A stretch of 47,371 nt of DNA from Candidatus Woesearchaeota archaeon (GCA_012798335.1 JAAZNJ010000004.1:1-47371), one strand, 5' to 3'. Positions 14,135-36,902 are shown, counted from the first letter of the stretch. A program made the numbers and translations. The notes: generated by a model not told the origin, from the sequence alone.

Positions 14135-14224
14135 GGCTCTGTAGCTCAGTGTTAGAGCGCTGCTCTCATGAATAATTAGTGTTGAGAAAGGCAGAGGTCG
14201 GGAGTTAAATCCTCCTCAGAGCCA
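14135..14224 (+). tRNA. tRNA with CAT anticodon (elongator Met or Ile2) and an 18-nt intron at 14171-14188
   Basis: Acceptor stem GGCTCTG/CAGAGCC plus A73, D-arm GCTC/GAGC, anticodon stem CTGCT/GGCAG, loop CTCATG|intron|A, T-arm GGGAG-TTAAATC-CTCCT. Loop CTCA pairs with intron TGAG in a BHB-like central helix. Confidence 0.8.
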
Positions 14225-27261: not shown

Positions 27262-27296
27262 ATATTAAAATATTTCTTAATATAAATATAAATTAT

Positions 27297-27380
27297 GCGG
27301 GTGTGCCAGAGCGGTCAAATGGGCGAGATTAAGGCTCTCGTGGCTTAGTGCCTGCAAAGGTTCAAATCCTTTCACCCGCA
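27297..27380 (+). tRNA. tRNA-Leu (type II, long variable arm); anticodon read as AAG
   Basis: Acceptor stem GCGGGTG/CACCCGC plus A73. Anticodon stem CGAGA/TCTCG with loop TTAAGGC. Variable arm TGGCTTAGTGCCTGC. T-arm AAAGG-TTCAAAT-CCTTT. Confidence 0.8.
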
Positions 27381-27404
27381 TTGAAATAAGATTTAAGAAA
27401 AAAA

Positions 27405-28427
27405 TTACATAGAAGAAATAGAATATTTTTGTTTAGGCATCCAAATCATATAAACAGGATGTTTAAGATCAGAAAGATTTTCTTCATAATATCTATAATT
27501 TTTATTTGGGCCATTCCAATCAAAAAGTTTTGCAATTCTCCCCTTTTTATCAACCCACTCTATAAATATTGCATTATGACCTGTATTTTTATCCCAAATA
27601 TAAGAAATTATATCCCCTGTTTGTAACAAATTTAATTTTTCTATTTCATTTAATCCATATTTCAAACAAGAATCTTTATCAGAAGCTACAAGAAAAGGAA
27701 GGTTTAAAGAAGTTTTAGTTGAACTAACAGTATATTTTTTTCCAAGAAGATCAGAATAAACACAAGAAAAAACAACATTTGATTTTTTATAAATAGCATT
27801 AACTGCTTGCCAACAATCATCGCCAACAGATTTAGAATTAACACATAAAGCTAATGTATTAAAAACATTTTTTCTTGCTTCATCATTCAAAGAATTTATT
27901 GAAATTTTTATTCCTTTAAAATTAGCTGTTGAAGAACATTCTAAATTTTTGTCCCCTAAACATTTAGTTGATTCTAAAGTTTGTGGAATAGAATTATTAT
28001 TTAAAGAATAAACTCTGTTTACCTTTGCATTATTATTATAACAAACTTCTTGTCTTTTATACTCGTCTTGGTTATTTTCTATGATTACATCATTACAAGT
28101 GATAGATTCACATTTTTCTATGCTTAATGGATTATTTTTGTTTATACTTGATAAAAAATTACAGGTGATATCTTTTAAAAGAATTTTTTTATTCCCCACT
28201 TCATATTTTAGATTAAATGTAGAATGACAATAATTATCTGTTTGTAAAGAATAACAATAATTTTGACAAGAAGTTGTTACATCCCCTATATTTTCAAGGT
28301 TGCTTAAAAAAGTACCATTTGTTTCAGAATATCTATAAGCAATAACTCCTCCAGCAATTAGAGCTAGAATCAAAGACATTAAAAGGAAATTAAAATCTCC
28401 TCTTTTATTTTTAAAAGACATTATCAT
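27405..28427 (-). CDS. Membrane-anchored or secreted Cys-rich protein with a C-terminal Cys/His papain-fold-like (NlpC/P60- or CHAP-like) module
   Basis: N-terminal TM helix (FNFLLMSLILALIAGGVIAY). The C-terminus GDDCWQAVNAIYKK...GDIISYIWDKNTGHNAIFIEWVDKKGRIAKLFDWNG...HPVYMIWMP is shared with the giant protein upstream. Confidence 0.55.
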   Translation of the reverse strand: MIMSFKNKRGDFNFLLMSLILALIAGGVIAYRYSETNGTFLSNLENIGDVTTSCQNYCYSLQTDNYCHSTFNLKYEVGNKKILLKDITCNFLSSINKNNPLSIEKCESITCNDVIIENNQDEYKRQEVCYNNNAKVNRVYSLNNNSIPQTLESTKCLGDKNLECSSTANFKGIKISINSLNDEARKNVFNTLALCVNSKSVGDDCWQAVNAIYKKSNVVFSCVYSDLLGKKYTVSSTKTSLNLPFLVASDKDSCLKYGLNEIEKLNLLQTGDIISYIWDKNTGHNAIFIEWVDKKGRIAKLFDWNGPNKNYRYYEENLSDLKHPVYMIWMPKQKYSISSM

Positions 28428-28473
28428 AATAAAAATATATAAAAAGAGTTTAAAAGATTATTTATAATTATTA

Positions 28474-31400
28474 TTATGCATTTTGAGAAGAAGGTTTTTT
28501 AACAGGTTTCCAAATCATATAAACCGGATGAGAATCGTCTTTTAATGTAACGAGTTTATAATATCTATAATAATGAACCTTATTTTTGATATCATTCCAA
28601 TCAAATAATTTAGCTATTCTATTCTCTTTATCAAACCAATCTATAAAAATAGCATTATGACCTATATGCTCATTGTATACATAAGATATTATATCTCCAG
28701 GGTTTAAGAGATTTAACTTTTGTTCTTCATTATAATTTTCGTAAAGACATCTGTTTGGATTTACTTGAAGAATCCCATCTTTTGCTCCTGTAACAAGTTT
28801 AGTAACTTTTTCGTATTTTTTCCCTATAGGATCTGAATAAATACATTGAGAATTAAATCCTGCAGATTTATATGCTTGTTGTACAGCATCCCAACAATTT
28901 ATTGCATTTACCTGATTACCCACTTTATTAGATAAAGCATTTATTAAAGAAGATCTATCAGAAGATAAAGAACCAACATTAGTATGGGATACTCCAAAAG
29001 AGGTTATAGTTTCTTCTCCTTTACTTTTTATTGGCATATTAAAGATCCAATTTTTAAAATAATCTCTTAAAGAATTAACAGAGGGTAAGTTTGGAAGATT
29101 GTTTTTTGATATTGGTTTTATTATCATATAAACAGGATGAGAATTATCCGAAAGATTAACTTCAGTTTCTTGGTATTTATTTCCTGAAAAAATATTTCCT
29201 TTATCCCAAGATAATACTTTCGCAATGTGATTTTCAAGATTAGTCCATTCTATAAAAATAACACTATTTGAAGATGAACCATCTTTAACATAAGAAATTA
29301 TATCCCCTTCACTTATTAAATCTAGTTTATTATTTTCTTGTGAAAGAGCATCAAAATCTTCTGGATTTAAAAGACAATTTTCTTTATCAACATAAAAAAG
29401 AGCAGTTTTAGCACTTGAAGTGTATACTGAAAAAGATTTTTGAAATTCATTATTAATATTTTTATAATTTTTCTTATCTTGGTCAGTATAATAACAATAA
29501 GGCGAAACTTCTGCAGACTCATAAATTTTTAAAACAGCCTCTTTTGCATTATTAACAGAAGAAGCTGGTTCTCCATTTAAAGAGATTAAAGAAGAATGGA
29601 CTCTTGTCTCAGCAAAAACAATTAAAGAATTTAAAAAACCAAGAGGAGACCTCTGATCTTCAGAAGAATCTTCTGGTGTAATTATAGAAGAAGTATCTGA
29701 ATTTTGAGAAGTTGAACTATCTGTTGTTTTTAAATTAATCTTACCAATATTCTGATTAGAGTTTATAAATGAGATTAAGAGCCCATTATAAAGCTCTCCT
29801 CTCAACAAAATAAGATTTGCTTTATATTTACTATCATAAACTTTGTCTAAAACATTTGTGATTACATTAATCTTTGAAGGAATATTTCCTTCTTGGTTTA
29901 ATTTGCTAATTAAATCATTTAATTGATCTTCAGTTAATTCTCCTGTTGTATCAAGAAGAGATTTATAAGAATCTTCTAAAGATTTAACAGTTGATTCTTC
30001 AACACTCTTAGATACAATAGCATTTTTAACACTATTTGTATCAAGCCAGCATTTCATATTACCATTTCCACAACCCCCCACTTGTTTCCATCTAGCATTT
30101 TCAGTGTTATAATAAGCATCAATTCCTTCTCCTGGACTTTTAGAAGCACATATTCTTACTATTCCTTGATTTATCCCTGCTGCACATTCTGCTTCTGTTT
30201 TTATATCCTCTTTAGTAGAGATAGATTTAACATACTCATCAGAAAGAAGATTAACTGCAACAGAAGTAGAAGCTTCTTTAAAACCACATACTTCTTGATT
30301 ATTAACAGAAATACATAACTCAGTATATCCCGAATTTCCAATTATATCCTTAGTTTTAGAGAGATAATCTCCATTAGTTACATAACCGCTATCCACGACT
30401 AATGCTGTTGAAGTATCTTGATAATAAGTTTCTTTATTCCTTAAATAGATTTTATAATTTGCTCCACTATCTGTTCCTGCATAAATATGATAATAAACTT
30501 TATACTGAGAGGTTGGATGTTGTGTAACTGTTGTTAAAGGTATTTCATCAAATCTTCCTGTGAATTGTGCAGGTGAATCTGACTTTAATAAACTTTTAAC
30601 AACACTAGAAAAATCTTGGGTAGTAAAAGAAGTATAAAGTTTACAAACTTCGCCTCCAATATTTTCAGAACTTCTTAAAAGAAAAGCTTTTTTAGAATTT
30701 TGTCCATAAGAATTAACAAAATAATCTGCAGCAGATTTTGTGAGTTCCCATGAAGCTTGAACATTAACATATTCTCCACCACCTCTTCCTTTATTTAATA
30801 AAGATTCAACTATTGTAGGAATTCCTAAATCTAAAAGAGGAGAAACTTGTCTCCAAAAAAAATCACAAATATAAAAACTATTAATTTCATCGCAAACACC
30901 AACTGTTTGTCCATTTTGTAAACTTATATTTAAACAATCAGTATAAGATTTTAATACAGAATTTAATGAATCAACTCCTGCTTTAATTCCTGTTAAACAA
31001 ACAGGTAAAATAATTCCTTCTTTAGCATTAGGCAAACATAACATTATACTTCCTAAAATTCCAGATTGCACAACATTATCTACTTTGTATTTTCCTCCAA
31101 AATCACATCTACTTGAAGGACATATTACAGGATCACAAAGATTAAAGATTGTTAAGCAATCTTGATGAGACATAAAGTCTTCACATCTAAATGAACTAGT
31201 ATCTAATTGTGATTTTCCTACTTTAAAGACTTGGTCTAATATCTTAACACTAGAACCTTCTGCTTGATTAGATGCTTTTTGTGCCTGTTGTATTGCACTA
31301 ATTGCTTTTGTAGTTAATCTTACTGATTCTGTTTCTGATAAACCCATAACATACTTATAACTTTCAGAGATGCTTAAGTCTATAAGCTGACAAAGATCAT

Positions 31401-34400
31401 CAACTGACTGAGAATTTCTAAGAGAGAATTCTTCTTTTCCATCTGTCCCAACATTACATAAATAAAAAACATTAATTCTTCCAGAATCTAAAATAGCATT
31501 TTTATTCCCATAAACAAGAGGTTCTATTCCAGCATACCACCCATTTGTTGTGTCAATAGGAACAATTGAAGGTAATTTGTCAGAATCACTAGAATCATAA
31601 TATTTTAATTCAGGATTTTGGTATTTATTAGATAAACTTGCACTTACAAAATAAATGTTATTAAAAGAGAAAGGCAATTTATCAGGATTACCTAAATCAA
31701 GAATTTGAAAGACTCCATTCTCTTTAGTGATTTTATAAATTAAATCTTGATTATTATTTTTTTTAATGAAGTAATTATTCCCTTTCTTCTCTAATACTAT
31801 AACATAAAAGGAGGTATCACTCTTTTCCTTATCAAGATACTCAAATAAATAAACAGGATAATTTTTTCCTTCAAACTGGTTATTCAAGTTTTTTAAGTCT
31901 TCTGAAATTAAACCCAAATAAAGGGTCTTTCCATTAGAATCAGAACTTAAAATTCCAATTTTTTTAGAATCAATTCCAAGGTAATCAGACAAACTTAAAA
32001 TTTGCTCATTAGACACAGAGGTTAAAGAAACTTCATTAATCAAAGATTCTAATTTTGTATTTGCTACTTCTTTTAGATTATCTGAGATGCCTGTTTCACT
32101 CAACATCATTAAATATAAATTTAAATCTCTTGCCTGTTCAAAATTCATTGATTGCTTTAAACCTTCTTGATTTTCTAATAATTTTTTAAGATTTTCTTTT
32201 GTTTTGCTACTTATTCCTGATCCTTCTTTATCAATAATTTTATTTAGTTTGTCTTTGTTTAATAAGAACTCTGTTTTTAATTTTTCTTTATTTATGGTAG
32301 TTGTTTGAGTTCCTAATAAAGAGGTGGTTTCTGATTGATAATCTGGATTGGATTGTTCTTCTTTTATTTCTTTATTAATTTCGTCAATGAATTCAGAAGT
32401 ATCTTGTACATCTTTCTCAATATCTGAAGAATGAGAAGAAAGACAGTTATCCAATGAACTAAATTGAGAAGGATTTTCTTTCATCTCTTTTTGACATTCA
32501 GCATACCAACCAGAACTTCCTTGAACTCCTTTCATAACAAGAAGTCTAGCCATACCTTGACTTGTTGAACCTAAGATGAAATTTTTTATTAAAAGAGTTG
32601 CAGTAGAAACATAACACGCTCCTTTTAAAGGCTCAATAACTGCTTCTAAACCATTAGAAATATTTGACAATAAAGAAATTTTTTCATTTATATTTTTTAT
32701 TAAAGATTTAGTTTGTTCAGGTGTTAATTTAATAGCTCTTTTTTCAATTCCTATCTTAAAACTGAAATTTGCTTGCGACGAAGAAGAGCTTATTGAAGGG
32801 GTTAATGAAACAAAAGCTTCTTTTTTTAAATTAACATTAGAAACAACAATAAAATAATTTCCTATTTTTAATTGATCATTTTTATAAATTTTATAAGTTG
32901 GTTGACTAATCTGTTTTTTAATATTTTCATCTGAAGAGCTAACTTGAACATTAACATAATTTCCTTTTGAATCACTATCTATTGAATTTAGTTGTATTGA
33001 CAAAGGAATATTATATGAATTTAAATCATAAACTCCATTTTTGTTTAATGAAAAAAAAGCTTTATTAGAACCATCATTCACAAAAAAAGTTGCACCATAT
33101 TCTTCAAAAGAAGGTTCAGAGATATAATTTAAAGATATTTTATACAAGTTTTTATTTATTGAAACAAACGCACTATTTGTAGAAGAAGATAATTTTAATT
33201 CATTACAATATTTTTCTTTTAATTCTGAAATGTATAAAGAATTAGGATAATCAGAAAAAAACTGATTGCATAATTTAGAGGTAGTAAATTTTTGATTTGT
33301 ATTATAAGACAAAATAATTTCTTTATACAAGGCTTTTTCTCCTGTATAAACATTTTCATTAGAATTAATAAGAGATTCAGAAGCAAATTCTTTTATTACA
33401 GATTCATAATCCTCTTTTGCTAATTCATAATTATTTTTAATTTCTCCAAACAATTCTTCATCTTTAGGTATATCAAATCCATTAAATACAACAAGTTTCT
33501 CCTGAATTTTATAACCCTCTTTACCTTGTTTTAAAAATTCAATTTCTTGTCCAGAACCGATTTTATAAAAAAAGCTTTGATATAAAAAAGCACCAAAACT
33601 TGTAGCTAAGCTATCTAAAGAAAAAAGTTTTTCATTTTTAAGGTTATTAGCTGAAATTATTTGATTGATTAATGAAGAAAAACCAGCGATTTGATAGCTA
33701 TTTAAACTTTGTGCAGAATTAGAAATTTCTTTGGGTATTTCTCCTAACCAAATAATACTTTCTGGTTTATTATTTGCACTATCTAAAATAACAGAACTAA
33801 CCCCAACAAGATAAACATCTTTATGCTCATCTGAAAAAAGAAAATCTCCAATACCCTTAATGTATTCTGTTCCATCAATAGAAAGGTTTACTTTATAAGA
33901 ATTAAAAAGAAAGTAATCTTTTATACCATTGTCCTCATTGCATCTTATTTTAACAACTTCAGAGTATTTATCAATAGAAGTTATAGAACATTTATTATCA
34001 AGAAATTTATCATTCTGTTTTAAATCTACAATATTAGAATTAATAGAAATTTGGGCTTTAGTTTCAGGGTTTTCTAAATCTTGTAATTTAACTTGTAAAC
34101 CAGTACACCCAAAATCATTAGAATAAATTATTTTAGAATTTTCTCCTTTGGATAAGGTTAAAGAAGATATTTTTCTGTCTTTTGAATCATAAACCCAAAG
34201 AGTTGCTTTATTGTTTTCTAAATTTGCTAGTCTTATATATCCTTTATTATTCCAAAAGCTATATTTATTTTTTAGATTATCCCATTCATAATCATTTGGT
34301 ATTTCTTTTAAATTGATAGAATAATCATTAATTCCAACTTCATCTTTTATGTTGTAAGAAATTCTTGCACTAAGATTTCCTTCTACAAAATCAGGAATCT

Positions 34401-34842
34401 TAGATGTATTTGGTTCTTTTTTTAATAGAATTTTTATATAACCCGGATTTTTTAAATCAGATTGAACTCCTGTTAAAGCAGAATATGCAGGATAATAAGA
34501 AACACTACTTATCTCTTTAGAATGATTTCCTGAAAAAGATACACTTTTTATTCCAGAAACATCAACTAAAGGATTAATCTGATAAAGATTAATCTTACAA
34601 TAGACAGGCACATCATTTTCTTCAAGTAAATCGTCTCTTACAATTTCTGGAGAGCACTGTAAAGGAGAAACAAATGCTATAAAATCTTCTCCTTGATTGC
34701 ATTGATAAATTGGAGAACTCTCTGTGTTAGAGTTATCATTCTTTTGAGTTGTAAAAAAATCTGAAATTGTTGCTGAAAATACTAAATTAGAAAATAAAAT
34801 AATAAAAAATACCAAAAATAAATAGTTTATTTTTTTTATCAT
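28474..34842 (-). CDS. Giant secreted surface protein (2122 aa) with a central Cys-rich region and two C-terminal Cys/His-module copies, the first degenerate
   Basis: Signal-peptide-like start MIKKINYLFLVFFIILFSNLVFSA. An uninterrupted 6.4-kb ORF in an AT-rich genome. Module copies lie at ~29110-29553 (no Cys/His) and ~28501-28899 (NCWDAV...GHNAIFIDW...LFDWN). Confidence 0.8.
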   Translation of the reverse strand: MIKKINYLFLVFFIILFSNLVFSATISDFFTTQKNDNSNTESSPIYQCNQGEDFIAFVSPLQCSPEIVRDDLLEENDVPVYCKINLYQINPLVDVSGIKSVSFSGNHSKEISSVSYYPAYSALTGVQSDLKNPGYIKILLKKEPNTSKIPDFVEGNLSARISYNIKDEVGINDYSINLKEIPNDYEWDNLKNKYSFWNNKGYIRLANLENNKATLWVYDSKDRKISSLTLSKGENSKIIYSNDFGCTGLQVKLQDLENPETKAQISINSNIVDLKQNDKFLDNKCSITSIDKYSEVVKIRCNEDNGIKDYFLFNSYKVNLSIDGTEYIKGIGDFLFSDEHKDVYLVGVSSVILDSANNKPESIIWLGEIPKEISNSAQSLNSYQIAGFSSLINQIISANNLKNEKLFSLDSLATSFGAFLYQSFFYKIGSGQEIEFLKQGKEGYKIQEKLVVFNGFDIPKDEELFGEIKNNYELAKEDYESVIKEFASESLINSNENVYTGEKALYKEIILSYNTNQKFTTSKLCNQFFSDYPNSLYISELKEKYCNELKLSSSTNSAFVSINKNLYKISLNYISEPSFEEYGATFFVNDGSNKAFFSLNKNGVYDLNSYNIPLSIQLNSIDSDSKGNYVNVQVSSSDENIKKQISQPTYKIYKNDQLKIGNYFIVVSNVNLKKEAFVSLTPSISSSSSQANFSFKIGIEKRAIKLTPEQTKSLIKNINEKISLLSNISNGLEAVIEPLKGACYVSTATLLIKNFILGSTSQGMARLLVMKGVQGSSGWYAECQKEMKENPSQFSSLDNCLSSHSSDIEKDVQDTSEFIDEINKEIKEEQSNPDYQSETTSLLGTQTTTINKEKLKTEFLLNKDKLNKIIDKEGSGISSKTKENLKKLLENQEGLKQSMNFEQARDLNLYLMMLSETGISDNLKEVANTKLESLINEVSLTSVSNEQILSLSDYLGIDSKKIGILSSDSNGKTLYLGLISEDLKNLNNQFEGKNYPVYLFEYLDKEKSDTSFYVIVLEKKGNNYFIKKNNNQDLIYKITKENGVFQILDLGNPDKLPFSFNNIYFVSASLSNKYQNPELKYYDSSDSDKLPSIVPIDTTNGWYAGIEPLVYGNKNAILDSGRINVFYLCNVGTDGKEEFSLRNSQSVDDLCQLIDLSISESYKYVMGLSETESVRLTTKAISAIQQAQKASNQAEGSSVKILDQVFKVGKSQLDTSSFRCEDFMSHQDCLTIFNLCDPVICPSSRCDFGGKYKVDNVVQSGILGSIMLCLPNAKEGIILPVCLTGIKAGVDSLNSVLKSYTDCLNISLQNGQTVGVCDEINSFYICDFFWRQVSPLLDLGIPTIVESLLNKGRGGGEYVNVQASWELTKSAADYFVNSYGQNSKKAFLLRSSENIGGEVCKLYTSFTTQDFSSVVKSLLKSDSPAQFTGRFDEIPLTTVTQHPTSQYKVYYHIYAGTDSGANYKIYLRNKETYYQDTSTALVVDSGYVTNGDYLSKTKDIIGNSGYTELCISVNNQEVCGFKEASTSVAVNLLSDEYVKSISTKEDIKTEAECAAGINQGIVRICASKSPGEGIDAYYNTENARWKQVGGCGNGNMKCWLDTNSVKNAIVSKSVEESTVKSLEDSYKSLLDTTGELTEDQLNDLISKLNQEGNIPSKINVITNVLDKVYDSKYKANLILLRGELYNGLLISFINSNQNIGKINLKTTDSSTSQNSDTSSIITPEDSSEDQRSPLGFLNSLIVFAETRVHSSLISLNGEPASSVNNAKEAVLKIYESAEVSPYCYYTDQDKKNYKNINNEFQKSFSVYTSSAKTALFYVDKENCLLNPEDFDALSQENNKLDLISEGDIISYVKDGSSSNSVIFIEWTNLENHIAKVLSWDKGNIFSGNKYQETEVNLSDNSHPVYMIIKPISKNNLPNLPSVNSLRDYFKNWIFNMPIKSKGEETITSFGVSHTNVGSLSSDRSSLINALSNKVGNQVNAINCWDAVQQAYKSAGFNSQCIYSDPIGKKYEKVTKLVTGAKDGILQVNPNRCLYENYNEEQKLNLLNPGDIISYVYNEHIGHNAIFIDWFDKENRIAKLFDWNDIKNKVHYYRYYKLVTLKDDSHPVYMIWKPVKKPSSQNA

Positions 34843-36722
34843 ATTAGGTTTACCCCTATTTCATTTTCATCTATTAATAAAACATTTTTTTGTACACTTA
34901 AAAAGTCAGTTGGAGTTTTTAAAGATTGAACATTTAATTGTATAATCTTTGAATTTCTCAATTGTGTTTCTGAGATTTCATAATCTTTAATTATCCCCCC
35001 ACCAATAGGGACATTGGACATAAGTTGATTGGGGATTTTAATTTTTGAACAACTATTTTCAGAAATGCCAAATAAGCCTTTTATTCCTGATTTTATAGGA
35101 ACACATATTTCTGTCTCTGTTTCTGGAATTGTTAAAGAAGAATTTTTATAAACTTTTACTGAAATATTATAAATTCCTTCAGAAAGATTTATTGTTTTTT
35201 CTTTAGGATAAAAGAGAGTTTTTGAATAATCATTAAAATCAAAAGAAATTAAAGCCTCTTCATTAGAAGGCCTGTTGTCTAAACTCATTTGAATATTAAG
35301 GGGATAAGTCTTTGTTAAATAGATATTTATTTCTGATTCTTGGAGAGTATTGTCTAATACAGTTCTTGATTCAAGGAAATTATTTGAATTTATTTTTACA
35401 ACACCATTCACACATTCTGGGAATAAAAAAGTAGAATTGCCTGTAGAAGAATTTCCAATATAACAATTTTCATTTATACATTCAAAATTAACACTAAAAG
35501 GAATTGGATTATTTGAATTATCATAAACATTTAAAGTCACAGGAGTAACTTTGTTAGAACAAACGTCAATAGATGAAGAACTCGTGTTTTTTGTTAAAGC
35601 AAATTTTGGTTTGTTCTTGTCTACATAAACAACAAGAGGGAACTGGAATGTTTCATCGTTCTTAGAAATTTGAACAAGAACAGGATAATTTAAAGAATAA
35701 ACAAAATGATATGGAATAAAACAAAATCCTAAAATACTTAATTCAGGAGTGTTTCCAACAGGATTAGCTATAAGTAAATCCCCTTGAGAAGGATTAACTT
35801 CTAAAAACATTGGCCAATCCATAAAAGTTAAAAATTTAACACTTCCTTTTGTTTTAAAATCTCTATAAAAATATTTATCATTTTCAGATTTAGGATTTTT
35901 GTTTTCTGAGGTTATTGATTGTATATTTGGTTCAAGAGCGTTTTTTAAATCATAATAAATTTTATTGGCATCCCAAACTTTTGGAGAACATGATATTTCA
36001 AAACCATCAACAGGAGCATAGAGTCTTAGAACATCAATTGTATAATTCTCTAATAAAAGAGTTTCTTCCTCTTGGTTGTAAACCTTCAAAGCATCATTGT
36101 ATAATAACCCTAGATTAGAAACTAAATCTGTTTTATAATGATTAATCAAAAAAGATTGATTGTTTAAACTAATATTCATATTGAATGAAGAATCAATTAT
36201 TATTTTATTATCTAAGATTTTAGGGGAAACACTAAAATCTTTAAGTGTAATCTCAAATCCTTGAGCATAATTTATAGAAAAATCACAATTTTTTACATTA
36301 GATTCTATAAATTTTTTTAATTGATCTTCCATATCTCCTTGAGAAGGAATCTGTTTTTTTTCTAATGAGGTAGAAGAAAAATAATCCCAAAAAGGAATAT
36401 TATTCCCCATAAAATTTAAGTAAGATGAAGAAGGAAAATTATAAGAACCTTTTTGATATTCAGGAAGGTAGATATAACCCCCTTGAGATTCTAAAAGATA
36501 TATACCTTTTTTTCCAAGATCTTGAATACAAGAATCAAAAGTAGTATAAACAGGTTGGATTGTTAAAGGTATACTCTCTTTTACAATATTGTTTCTAAAT
36601 AAGAAGAAGATAACAACTCCTGAAACGATTAATAAAGCAACTATAATAAAAATCGTTAATTGGCCTTTTTTAAAAAATTTTTTATCTGAATAAAAATGAA
36701 TTTTTCCCTCTTTAACTATCAT
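34839..36722 (-). CDS. Membrane-anchored extracellular hypothetical protein (627 aa), first gene of the giant-protein operon
   Basis: N-terminal TM helix LTIFIIVALLIVSGVVIFFLF. Its stop overlaps the giant ORF start (ATGA overlap at 34839-34842). Confidence 0.6.
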   Translation of the reverse strand: MIVKEGKIHFYSDKKFFKKGQLTIFIIVALLIVSGVVIFFLFRNNIVKESIPLTIQPVYTTFDSCIQDLGKKGIYLLESQGGYIYLPEYQKGSYNFPSSSYLNFMGNNIPFWDYFSSTSLEKKQIPSQGDMEDQLKKFIESNVKNCDFSINYAQGFEITLKDFSVSPKILDNKIIIDSSFNMNISLNNQSFLINHYKTDLVSNLGLLYNDALKVYNQEEETLLLENYTIDVLRLYAPVDGFEISCSPKVWDANKIYYDLKNALEPNIQSITSENKNPKSENDKYFYRDFKTKGSVKFLTFMDWPMFLEVNPSQGDLLIANPVGNTPELSILGFCFIPYHFVYSLNYPVLVQISKNDETFQFPLVVYVDKNKPKFALTKNTSSSSIDVCSNKVTPVTLNVYDNSNNPIPFSVNFECINENCYIGNSSTGNSTFLFPECVNGVVKINSNNFLESRTVLDNTLQESEINIYLTKTYPLNIQMSLDNRPSNEEALISFDFNDYSKTLFYPKEKTINLSEGIYNISVKVYKNSSLTIPETETEICVPIKSGIKGLFGISENSCSKIKIPNQLMSNVPIGGGIIKDYEISETQLRNSKIIQLNVQSLKTPTDFLSVQKNVLLIDENEIGVNLI

Positions 36723-36831
36723 TAAAAAATAAAAGAAAAGAGATATATAAATCTTATTAGAATTTAATAAGCTTTAAGAAAAAATAAGAAAATTTAAATA
36801 AAATACTTATGTGAAAAAGAAATAGATATAG

Positions 36832-36902
36832 GGCCTCATAAGCTAATGGTAGACTATGTCCTTGACGTGGACAATGCCCAAGTTCAATCCTTGGTGAGGC
36901 CA
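36832..36902 (+). tRNA. tRNA-Val (GAC)
   Basis: Acceptor stem GGCCTCA/TGAGGCC plus A73. Anticodon stem TGTCC/GGACA with loop TTGACGT. T-arm CCAAG-TTCAATC-CTTGG. The D-stem has one mismatch as I fold it. Confidence 0.75.

Follow-up and report, generated by a model that had tools for sequence, protein, structure and literature searches.

A giant secreted scaffold with a divergent NlpC/P60-like head, probably directed at murein, and its partner with a prepilin-like signal in a Woesearchaeota archaeon

We analysed a stretch of 47,371 nucleotides (nt) from a Candidatus Woesearchaeota archaeon (GCA_012798335.1, JAAZNJ010000004.1:1-47371; the whole stretch is referred to below as the window), in which three consecutive minus-strand genes occupy positions 27405 to 36722. 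From upstream to downstream they encode a 627-amino-acid (aa) partner protein (P0003), a giant protein of 2,122 aa (P0002) and a 340-aa protein (P0001). The giant ends in two copies, and P0001 in one copy, of a module with a Cys/His motif, and the giant is probably a surface scaffold that carries a murein-directed cysteine hydrolase. A preliminary description, made from the sequence alone, had presented the genes as a three-gene surface operon. The three open reading frames (ORFs) and the 46-nt gap between P0002 and P0001 lie exactly where it placed them, as does the overlap in which the stop codon of P0003 and the start codon of P0002 share 4 nt (34839-34842, ATGA on the minus strand). This arrangement stands, but the operon is not an ancestral unit: it consists of a conserved pair, P0003 and P0002, followed by a lineage-specific third gene. 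The genes and their parts are as follows.

34839..36722, minus strand: gene of the 627-aa partner P0003 (ORF)
36597..36671, minus strand: predicted class III (prepilin-like) signal of P0003, with K18-K19-G20, Q21 and hydrophobic residues to aa 42
28474..34842, minus strand: gene of the 2,122-aa giant P0002 (ORF)
34774..34842, minus strand: predicted Sec-type signal peptide of the giant, aa 1-23 (MIKKINYLFLVFFIILFSNLVFS / AT), the only hydrophobic segment of P0002
29773..34773, minus strand: conserved core of the giant, aa 24-1690 (alignment of about 50 homologues)
30838..31200, minus strand: most conserved block of the core, aa 1215-1335 (mean column identity 77%, 43 invariant columns)
29641..29772, minus strand: Ser/Thr-rich linker, aa 1691-1734, joining core to head (from the sequence)
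29098..29640, minus strand: head module 1, aa 1735-1915, catalytically dead, with Ala1766 at the Cys position and Asn1859 at the His position
28477..28980, minus strand: head module 2, aa 1955-2122, residues intact, Cys1983 (28894-28896) and His2062 (28657-28659)
27405..28427, minus strand: gene of the 340-aa protein P0001 (ORF)
within 27405..28427, minus strand: N-domain of P0001, aa 1-175, Cys-rich with a prepilin-like signal, fused to the module at aa 176-340
within 27405..28427, minus strand: module of P0001, aa 176-340, residues intact, Cys205 (27813-27815) and His284 (27576-27578)

Direct scans of P0001, P0002 and P0003 against Pfam and NCBIfam returned nothing significant. Between the window and its closest relative, locus L001, the ratio of non-synonymous to synonymous substitution rates (dN/dS) is 0.07-0.42 in all parts of the genes except the 44-codon linker, and we therefore consider these to be real genes under selection. 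The core gave values of 0.07-0.16 and the partner P0003 a value of 0.11, while head modules 1 (dead) and 2 (live) gave 0.36 and 0.42, respectively. The Ser/Thr-rich linker is unconstrained, as its dN/dS is 1.6.

The three copies of the Cys/His module that had been described are present, with the motifs GDIISY, IFI[ED]W and HPVYMI in place, although the module is nearer 165 aa long than the ~140 aa first estimated. By BLASTP, aa 185-336 of P0001 match aa 1963-2118 of the giant with 44% identity (E 7e-36), and the P0001 module matches aa 1737-1913 of the giant with 36% identity (E 7e-18). No further copy was found in the archaeon's own genome beyond these three sites. The first copy in the giant had been reported to lack both the Cys and the His, and Ala1766 and Asn1859 indeed stand in their places. 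This double loss is common to the three closest giants (P0007, P0008 and P0009), whereas more distant giants have a single module at the module 1 position with the Cys and His intact. In a tree of module sequences, module 1, module 2 and the module of the small proteins form three supported clades, with module 1 on a long stem; the relations among the clades, and with them the order of duplication, are unsupported. Module 1 is kept under purifying selection (dN/dS 0.36). Maintenance of a dead copy fits a binding role, and module 1 is probably a wall-binding domain; the binding-only pseudo-enzyme that had been suggested as a possibility agrees with the observed ratio.

Two observations on individual copies are recorded here. 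The P0001 module (window 27408-27902 versus L001:13308-13811) has a synonymous divergence (dS) of 0.15, compared with 0.37-0.49 in every other part of the locus, and may have undergone recent gene conversion or transfer. P0007, a 97% identical giant in a public NCBI record, is 1,976 aa long and ends ~20 residues into the live module. This early end is probably a truncation at a contig end or in the annotation; it could also represent a strain without a live head.

A profile of the module, built from 16 active copies, was searched against a library of 1.84 billion representative proteins. The matches (E up to 1e-3) form 255 clusters at 50% identity, most of them on giant proteins of DPANN archaea, where the module lies at the C-termini of proteins of 2,000-3,000 aa, and some in small proteins. 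All 129 full copies collected from these matches contain the Cys, the His, the Gly of a PGD motif and the Phe and Trp that follow the His. CHAP (PF05257) was not matched in the module scans or anywhere in the genome, and the best E-value against the NlpC/P60 family (PF00877) among 20 module copies was 0.08, in 3 members. As an independent reference, 23 Pfam-positive NlpC/P60 domains from Nanoarchaeota genomes were aligned separately. Comparison of the module alignment with this reference alignment by hhalign gave a probability of 84.4% and an E-value of 7e-6 over 80 columns, with the Cys of the module paired with DCS, PGD with PGD and the His with HVGIY. A remote small-protein homologue, P0133 (profile E 3e-16), scores 29.8 bits against PF00877, where the cut-off is 23 bits, and does so exactly over the Cys-to-His span. 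Among 51 remote matches NLPC_P60 was found in 5 and Amidase_6 in 3, and some remote homologues have PG_binding_1, PG_binding_3, SLT or Glucosaminidase domains. Proteins of the P0133 and P0136 type thus form a bridge from the module to the Pfam NLPC_P60 family. P0133 and P0136 themselves are small secreted proteins with 2-3 tandem compact modules (HCWDY...GDWLYY...EHSGIFV), some copies of which have no Cys. The module also aligned with the Cys and His of PDB entry 4fdy, at a non-significant E of 0.34.

In an AlphaFold2 model of P0001, run on a 20-row alignment, most of aa 165-335 has a predicted local distance difference test score (pLDDT) above 90, while a loop around aa 231-250 is modelled with low confidence. 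In this model Cys205 is the first residue of a helix (205-215) and His284 lies within a strand (283-293); this predicted placement, with a Cys at a helix start and a His in a strand, would be a papain-like arrangement. The top Foldseek matches in the PDB were the CHAP lysins PlyPy, Ly7917 and PlyC, the amidase Tse1 and the C39 peptidase of PCAT1. Among viral models the first matches were CHAP-domain phage proteins. The Foldseek matches also included a minor tail protein. Taken alone, this fold-search evidence for kinship with CHAP or NlpC is suggestive only. We assign the module to the NlpC/P60 superfamily, as a very divergent branch, because of the intermediate sequences and the profile-profile match, which are firmer than the fold search; its activity as a cysteine hydrolase is predicted. 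The preliminary description had proposed a papain-type fold of the NlpC/P60, CHAP or transglutaminase kind. This main claim is supported: profile and fold comparisons point to the first two of these and not to a non-enzymatic fold, and the Cys and His are conserved in all copies collected.

The modules occupy the variable end of a large protein family. At least 49 homologues of the giant, of 1,600-2,860 aa, are labelled Pacearchaeota, Nanoarchaeota or simply 'archaeon'. Their alignment is conserved from aa 1 to ~1690, with 174 positions at 90% identity or more in ~50 homologues, and conservation collapses beyond. Beyond the core (after ~aa 1690), the sequences of 69 relatives form 32 clusters. 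When 70 such tails were compared with Pfam, SLT was found in 7, Amidase_3 in 2, and Glucosaminidase, DUF1615 and NLPC_P60 in 1 each. The heads of further homologues contain Amidase_2 with Peptidase_M15_4 (P0038) or Hydrolase_2, and a canonical NLPC_P60 domain is present in the giant ORF of each of the sampled genomes G269 and G265. The Cys/His module fills the head slot in 15 of 80 loci. In two giants it stands right after an SLT domain, namely P0026 (SLT 2104-2202, module 2277-2437) and P0040 (SLT 2090-2205, module 2271-2449). An SLT domain followed by a peptidase module is the classic glycosidase-plus-peptidase layout of bifunctional murein hydrolases. P0002 itself has no SLT domain in a Pfam scan. 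Its SLT-bearing homologues (PF01464; P0025, P0026, P0031, P0040 and P0049) align with 57-82% of P0002 at 29-36% identity, with E-values down to 1e-291, and the core of P0002 is 34-36% identical to SLT-bearing members over 77-82% of the length. One of them carries the NCBI name 'transglycosylase SLT domain-containing protein [Candidatus Pacearchaeota archaeon]'.

The putative Sec-type signal peptide of the giant would be cleaved after aa 23, and the core that follows is rich in conserved Cys, nearly all of which are among the 174 conserved positions. The dense Cys cluster that had been noted at aa ~1210-1330 was recovered as 10 Cys at aa 1220-1326, each at least 90% conserved across ~50 homologues. 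They lie in the most conserved block (aa 1215-1335) amid hydrophobic stretches (CDPVICPSSRCD...VVQSGILGS...PVCLTGIKAG). In the PDB sequence searches with module, core and partner, a match to alpha-haemolysin (E 0.04) was rejected as short and due to chance. A second conserved island was seen in the core at aa 650-810 (window about 32413-32895), with a GIEKR...L.P motif and Cys743, Cys783 and Cys800. The stretch after it, aa 810-1050, is poorly conserved, Lys/Glu-rich and probably helical. Neither this island nor the following stretch showed similarity to anything known.

Using the most conserved block of the giant (aa 1215-1335) as query in GTDB species genomes, we found it in 354 of them and took 80 loci for comparison. 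Within the phylum it is present in 152 of 401 sampled genomes, including 25 of the 27 from the window's own GTDB family, and is almost always single copy. Upstream DNA is available for 71 loci, and in every one of them the gene immediately before the giant encodes a P0003 homologue; the two genes mostly overlap by the same 4 nt. In ~45 of the 80 loci TFIIB and S8e lie on one side, and a Zn-ribbon protein and S3Ae on the other. All 80 loci are labelled Pacearchaeota, Woesearchaeota, Nanoarchaeota/Nanoarchaeia, Candidatus Parvarchaeum or unclassified archaeon. The constant adjacency of the partner, the recurring neighbourhood and the wide occurrence together indicate that the pair is an old, vertically inherited core unit and not a mobile element, and the 627-aa and 2,122-aa genes are translationally coupled. 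Weak partial matches (E 1e-4 to 1e-10) were also obtained in ~60 sampled genomes of the same class (for example G346:C8:5267-5467 and G132:C19:8789-8947). These matches cover no more than the latter half of the Cys-rich block and lie within open frames of 1,000-2,600 aa; they suggest that the giant family has further, more remote branches beyond the Pacearchaeota-type families.

Each of the three proteins had been described as starting with a signal peptide or transmembrane (TM) anchor, and P0003 as an anchor protein. P0001, P0002 and P0003 do have a single hydrophobic segment each, always N-terminal, but those of P0003 and P0001 resemble prepilin-like class III signals rather than plain anchors. 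In P0003 the invariant Q21 is followed by LTIFIIVALLIV. Q21 is found in all 68 partner homologues, with F25, I27 and A29 at least 90% conserved, and the shared N-terminal pattern is [KR]-[GA], Q and VTIFIIIAI. The expression [KR].?G[QE] plus hydrophobic residues fits 51 of the 68 homologues, and the other listed members have [KR]A-Q instead. In P0001, K-N-K-R-G is followed by D-F-N-F-L-L..., that is, K-R-G and then DFNFLLMSLILAL. Neither protein matched a pilin or class III signal model of Pfam or NCBIfam. The P0003 family matched nothing in Pfam, NCBIfam or the PDB, even with a 68-sequence profile, and no Pfam family is common to the 68 homologues. Based on the residue patterns, both N-termini are putative archaeal class III (prepilin-like) signals, with predicted cleavage.

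The genome encodes machinery that could serve such signals, namely a Peptidase_A24 prepilin peptidase (contig C23, 51 bits) and two T2SSE ATPases (contigs C63 and C22). Contig C22 (L090:808-9739), continued on C4 (L087/L089), has a type-IV-pilus-like locus. In order, it encodes a T2SSE ATPase of 780 aa, a protein of 724 aa for which nine TM segments are predicted, six small proteins in which a K-K-[GA] signal precedes a hydrophobic helix, a 342-aa SLT protein with a prepilin-like signal and a paralogue of the P0001 N-domain (34% identity) that is truncated where the contig stops. The sequences of C4 and of the C22 end are almost identical and may be an assembly duplicate or strain variants. 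The signal pattern, together with the presence of an N-domain paralogue at a pilus-type locus, leads us to read P0001 as best explained by a pilin-like carrier fused to a hydrolase. Full-length relatives of P0001 are confined to the closest genome (L001) and two metagenomic sequences (P0004-P0006 in addition to the L001 locus being the only ones listed), and P0001 is therefore a recent, lineage-specific addition.

In the window the three genes have archaeal housekeeping genes (TFIIB and the ribosomal proteins S8e and S3Ae) as neighbours, and the G+C content of the locus is the same as around it. The source assembly, from a tiny symbiotic archaeon of the Pacearchaeota type, comprises 0.61 Mb in 68 contigs and is 87.6% complete; the locus makes up 1.5% of this 0.61-Mb genome. 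The non-coding and bordering features are listed below.

28428..28473, minus strand: AT-rich spacer of 46 nt from P0002 to P0001 (from the sequence)
36723..36831, minus strand: region of 109 nt upstream of P0003 (from the sequence and ORF list)
27296..27381, plus strand: tRNA-Leu(AAG), lower boundary of the locus
36832..36902, plus strand: tRNA-Val(GAC), upper boundary of the locus

The 109-nt region contains no ORF for a small regulator; a TATA-like TTTATATA lies in it about 25-33 nt before the ATG of P0003. In the 46-nt spacer another TATA-like element, TTTTTATATAT, precedes the ATG of P0001 by about 10-20 nt. The latter is a putative promoter of P0001 by inference only, since the genome has a G+C content of ~26%. 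Elsewhere in the window, 14135-14224 was identified as a tRNA by Rfam (54.5 bits) and missed by ARAGORN; this tRNA probably has an intron.

Taken together, we read the locus as the 'giant surface protein' system of the Pacearchaeota/Woesearchaeota and propose the following course of events. P0003, with its prepilin-type signal, would be made together with the Sec-secreted, disulfide-rich giant and would hold it at the cell surface; such tethering is suggested by the invariant linkage and the translational coupling of the two genes. In the giant, a scaffold of ~1,690 aa would be joined through a flexible Ser/Thr linker to an enzymatic head that differs between species and here would be a tandem of dead and live copies of a divergent NlpC/P60-type cysteine hydrolase, and a third live copy would sit on the pilin-like carrier encoded 46 nt downstream. 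When the archaeon touches a bacterium, the live copies would cut peptide or amide bonds of the bacterial murein, and the dead copy would act as a wall-binding domain. Glycan strands would be cut by two stand-alone SLT lytic transglycosylases, both encoded elsewhere in the archaeon's own genome. In the 87.6%-complete genome we found no Mur ligase and no penicillin-binding protein (PBP) transpeptidase, and hence no sign that the cell synthesizes murein of its own. Because own murein genes are not seen and murein-specific domains fill the same slot in relatives, foreign bacterial murein is the most likely substrate. We consider a surface scaffold carrying a murein-directed cysteine hydrolase to be the probable nature of the system; murein as the substrate, anchoring at the surface and the biological purpose, whether attachment, breaching or feeding, are what we infer from this combination of parts.

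Several observations weigh against this proposal. P0001 and P0002 did not match PF00877 at E-values up to 1, and neither a single module nor a 20-sequence module profile matched PDB sequences significantly. The hhalign match is limited to the Cys-to-His part and ends at the His. In the fold searches the best E-values were 1e-2 (PDB) and 1.3e-3 (BFVD), none reaching 1e-3, and template-modelling scores were at most 0.42. The candidates for a third polar residue, an Asp at His+9 (72% conserved) and the Asp of F-D-W-N at His+19 (61%), are not invariant. With regard to the scaffold, an AlphaFold2 model of giant aa 1085-1615 has a pLDDT of 68 with low confidence in the Cys-rich conserved part, Foldseek with the core model returned generic Ig-like beta-sandwiches only, and the core profile matched nothing significant among PDB sequences. 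The heads of ~44 of the 70 relatives contain no recognisable domain, and 'wall hydrolase' is therefore not universal for the family. Finally, we know of no host for the window lineage.

An active cysteine hydrolase might act on something other than murein, such as the pseudomurein or S-layer proteins of an archaeal host, or host lipids, like the LRAT/PLAAT members of the NlpC/P60 superfamily. The module is far from canonical NlpC/P60 domains and has no direct Pfam match, so that its specificity could have changed, and the lack of an invariant third catalytic residue points the same way, as does the fact that the hosts of cultured DPANN archaea are archaea. We nevertheless consider this unlikely, as the same slot in relatives holds SLT domains, MurNAc-L-Ala amidases, a glucosaminidase and an M15 peptidase, all of which are murein-specific, and the module directly follows SLT in P0026 and P0040. 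Remote homologues with PG_binding_1 and PG_binding_3 domains also speak for a murein substrate. The Cys-before-His order is that of wall hydrolases, unlike the permuted LRAT type, and Pfam scans at E-values up to 10 gave no match to the Pei peptidase family.

The rapid turnover of the heads (32 clusters among 69 relatives, with a dN/dS of 0.36-0.42 versus 0.07-0.16 in the core) fits a changing outside target better than self-maintenance. This bears on the idea that the system acts on the archaeon's own envelope, either by processing, remodelling or cross-linking its own surface proteins or by opening the wall for a pilus. A single-copy core pair in a housekeeping neighbourhood is indeed what would be expected of a basic envelope component, many relatives have no recognisable hydrolase head, and specialised wall hydrolases go with bacterial pilus and secretion machines. 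Yet the failure to find a Mur ligase or PBP in the 88%-complete genome leaves no evident murein of its own to act on, and the recognisable heads are murein-specific enzyme types of bacterial origin. Action on the own envelope is thus quite improbable in our judgement.

The conserved Cys might also serve disulfides or metal binding, with all three modules being non-catalytic binders and the giant purely an adhesin. The module copy that has lost both residues and is still conserved would be accommodated by such a role, and in Cys-rich extracellular proteins conserved Cys alone are weak evidence of catalysis. We find this very unlikely, because the His and the PGD Gly are retained along with the Cys in all 129 copies collected, because the Cys and His align with the NlpC/P60 catalytic residues and the Cys caps a helix in the model as in papain-like enzymes, and because the loss is confined to the duplicated first copy. 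A virus or mobile-element remnant, with a tail-associated lysin on a tape-measure-like giant, would explain the flanking tRNA-Leu and tRNA-Val genes and the Foldseek matches to phage lysins and a minor tail protein, as phage tails do contain large proteins that end in lysin domains, but it is extremely unlikely given that synteny contradicts it (one copy in the same housekeeping neighbourhood in hundreds of species), no PHROG family was matched significantly, the G+C content is that of the surroundings and no integrase or repeat borders were seen at the locus.

The proposal of a scaffold with a murein-directed hydrolase head can be compared with several known systems. In its proposed catalytic residues the module resembles NlpC/P60 hydrolases (PF00877, MEROPS C40; E. 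coli MepS/Spr and B. subtilis LytF/CwlT), with a Cys followed by a His and PGD between them, and in its model it resembles both NlpC/P60 and CHAP domains (PF05257; PlyC, LysK and PlyPy), with the Cys at a helix start and the His in a strand. It differs from NlpC/P60 domains by an insert of ~45-60 aa that separates the catalytic helix from the PGD strand and contains two additional conserved Cys, and by a C-terminal extension ending in HPVY(M/V)IW.P, and from both families by having no direct PF00877 or PF05257 match. Pairing with SLT in one polypeptide, as in P0026 and P0040, is also found in CwlT and in conjugation hydrolases. Mycobacterium tuberculosis RipD has a non-catalytic NlpC/P60 domain that binds peptidoglycan. 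Module 1 is similar in having neither the Cys nor the His while being retained under selection (dN/dS 0.36); it differs in being a dead copy in tandem with a live copy on a giant protein, where binding is a putative function. Among archaeal class III signal proteins that are not filament subunits are those of the Sulfolobus sugar-binding 'bindosome'. The likeness lies in a hydrophobic helix after a [KR][GA] site, in large extracellular proteins and in a genome with a prepilin peptidase and pilus-type ATPases. The differences are that P0003 and P0001, whose processing and assembly are predicted, match no Pfam pilin or class III model and that the P0001 carrier is fused to a hydrolase.

Large extracellular proteins of up to ~3,000 aa with a murein-like lytic transglycosylase (SLT) domain have been described as fam00969, a family confined to Pacearchaeota and Woesearchaeota that was suggested to bind bacterial walls or degrade them (Castelle et al. 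2021, PMC8204110), an idea repeated by Vigneron et al. 2022 (PMC9723730) and in PMC11537232. The window giant shares the lineage, size range and extracellular prediction of fam00969, and since P0002 is homologous to SLT-bearing members its family is known in outline. Judging from the published description and the SLT-bearing homologues, the two are probably the same family. In contrast to that description, P0002 has no SLT domain and carries as its head a dead and a live NlpC/P60-like module in tandem. The fam00969 papers treat the SLT domain only, and not the core, the obligatory partner of 600-650 aa, the swapping of heads or the pilin-fusion paralogue. In the accessible literature we found no account of an NlpC/P60-type head, head swapping, a fixed partner, a dead/live tandem or a pilin fusion, and no paper that combines DPANN, NlpC and peptidoglycan. 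According to West-Roberts et al. 2023 (bioRxiv 10.1101/2023.11.21.568195), giant proteins of predatory Omnitrophota are implicated in cell-wall degradation. They resemble the present giant in being very large secreted proteins of an ultrasmall, probably host-dependent microbe and in being linked to wall degradation in another cell; they differ in belonging to a different domain of life, in showing no detected homology and in being ten times larger.

Pacearchaeota and Woesearchaeota are abundant, uncultured archaea with tiny genomes. The locus occupies 1.5% of the genome, and almost all sampled relatives of the same family have retained it, so that it probably has a central part in the life of these cells. 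A more far-reaching version, which we consider unlikely, is that P0003 and P0002 belong with the pilin-hydrolase fusion and the products of the pilus-type locus to a dedicated contact organelle for breaching a bacterial cell, in which the heads would open murein and the aa 1215-1335 block would insert into or fuse with the target membrane as a channel for uptake of lipids and metabolites. If true, it would be a machine without known homologue for cross-domain parasitism or predation of an archaeon on a bacterium. With its ~255 clusters at 50% identity, the module also enlarges the NlpC/P60 superfamily by a family of considerable size that lacked annotation. This previously unnamed branch, together with the retained dead copy and the pilin-fused copy, sharpens the published guess that these archaea engage bacteria, and a catalogue of head types could be matched to the wall chemotypes of co-occurring bacteria, which would allow hosts to be predicted.

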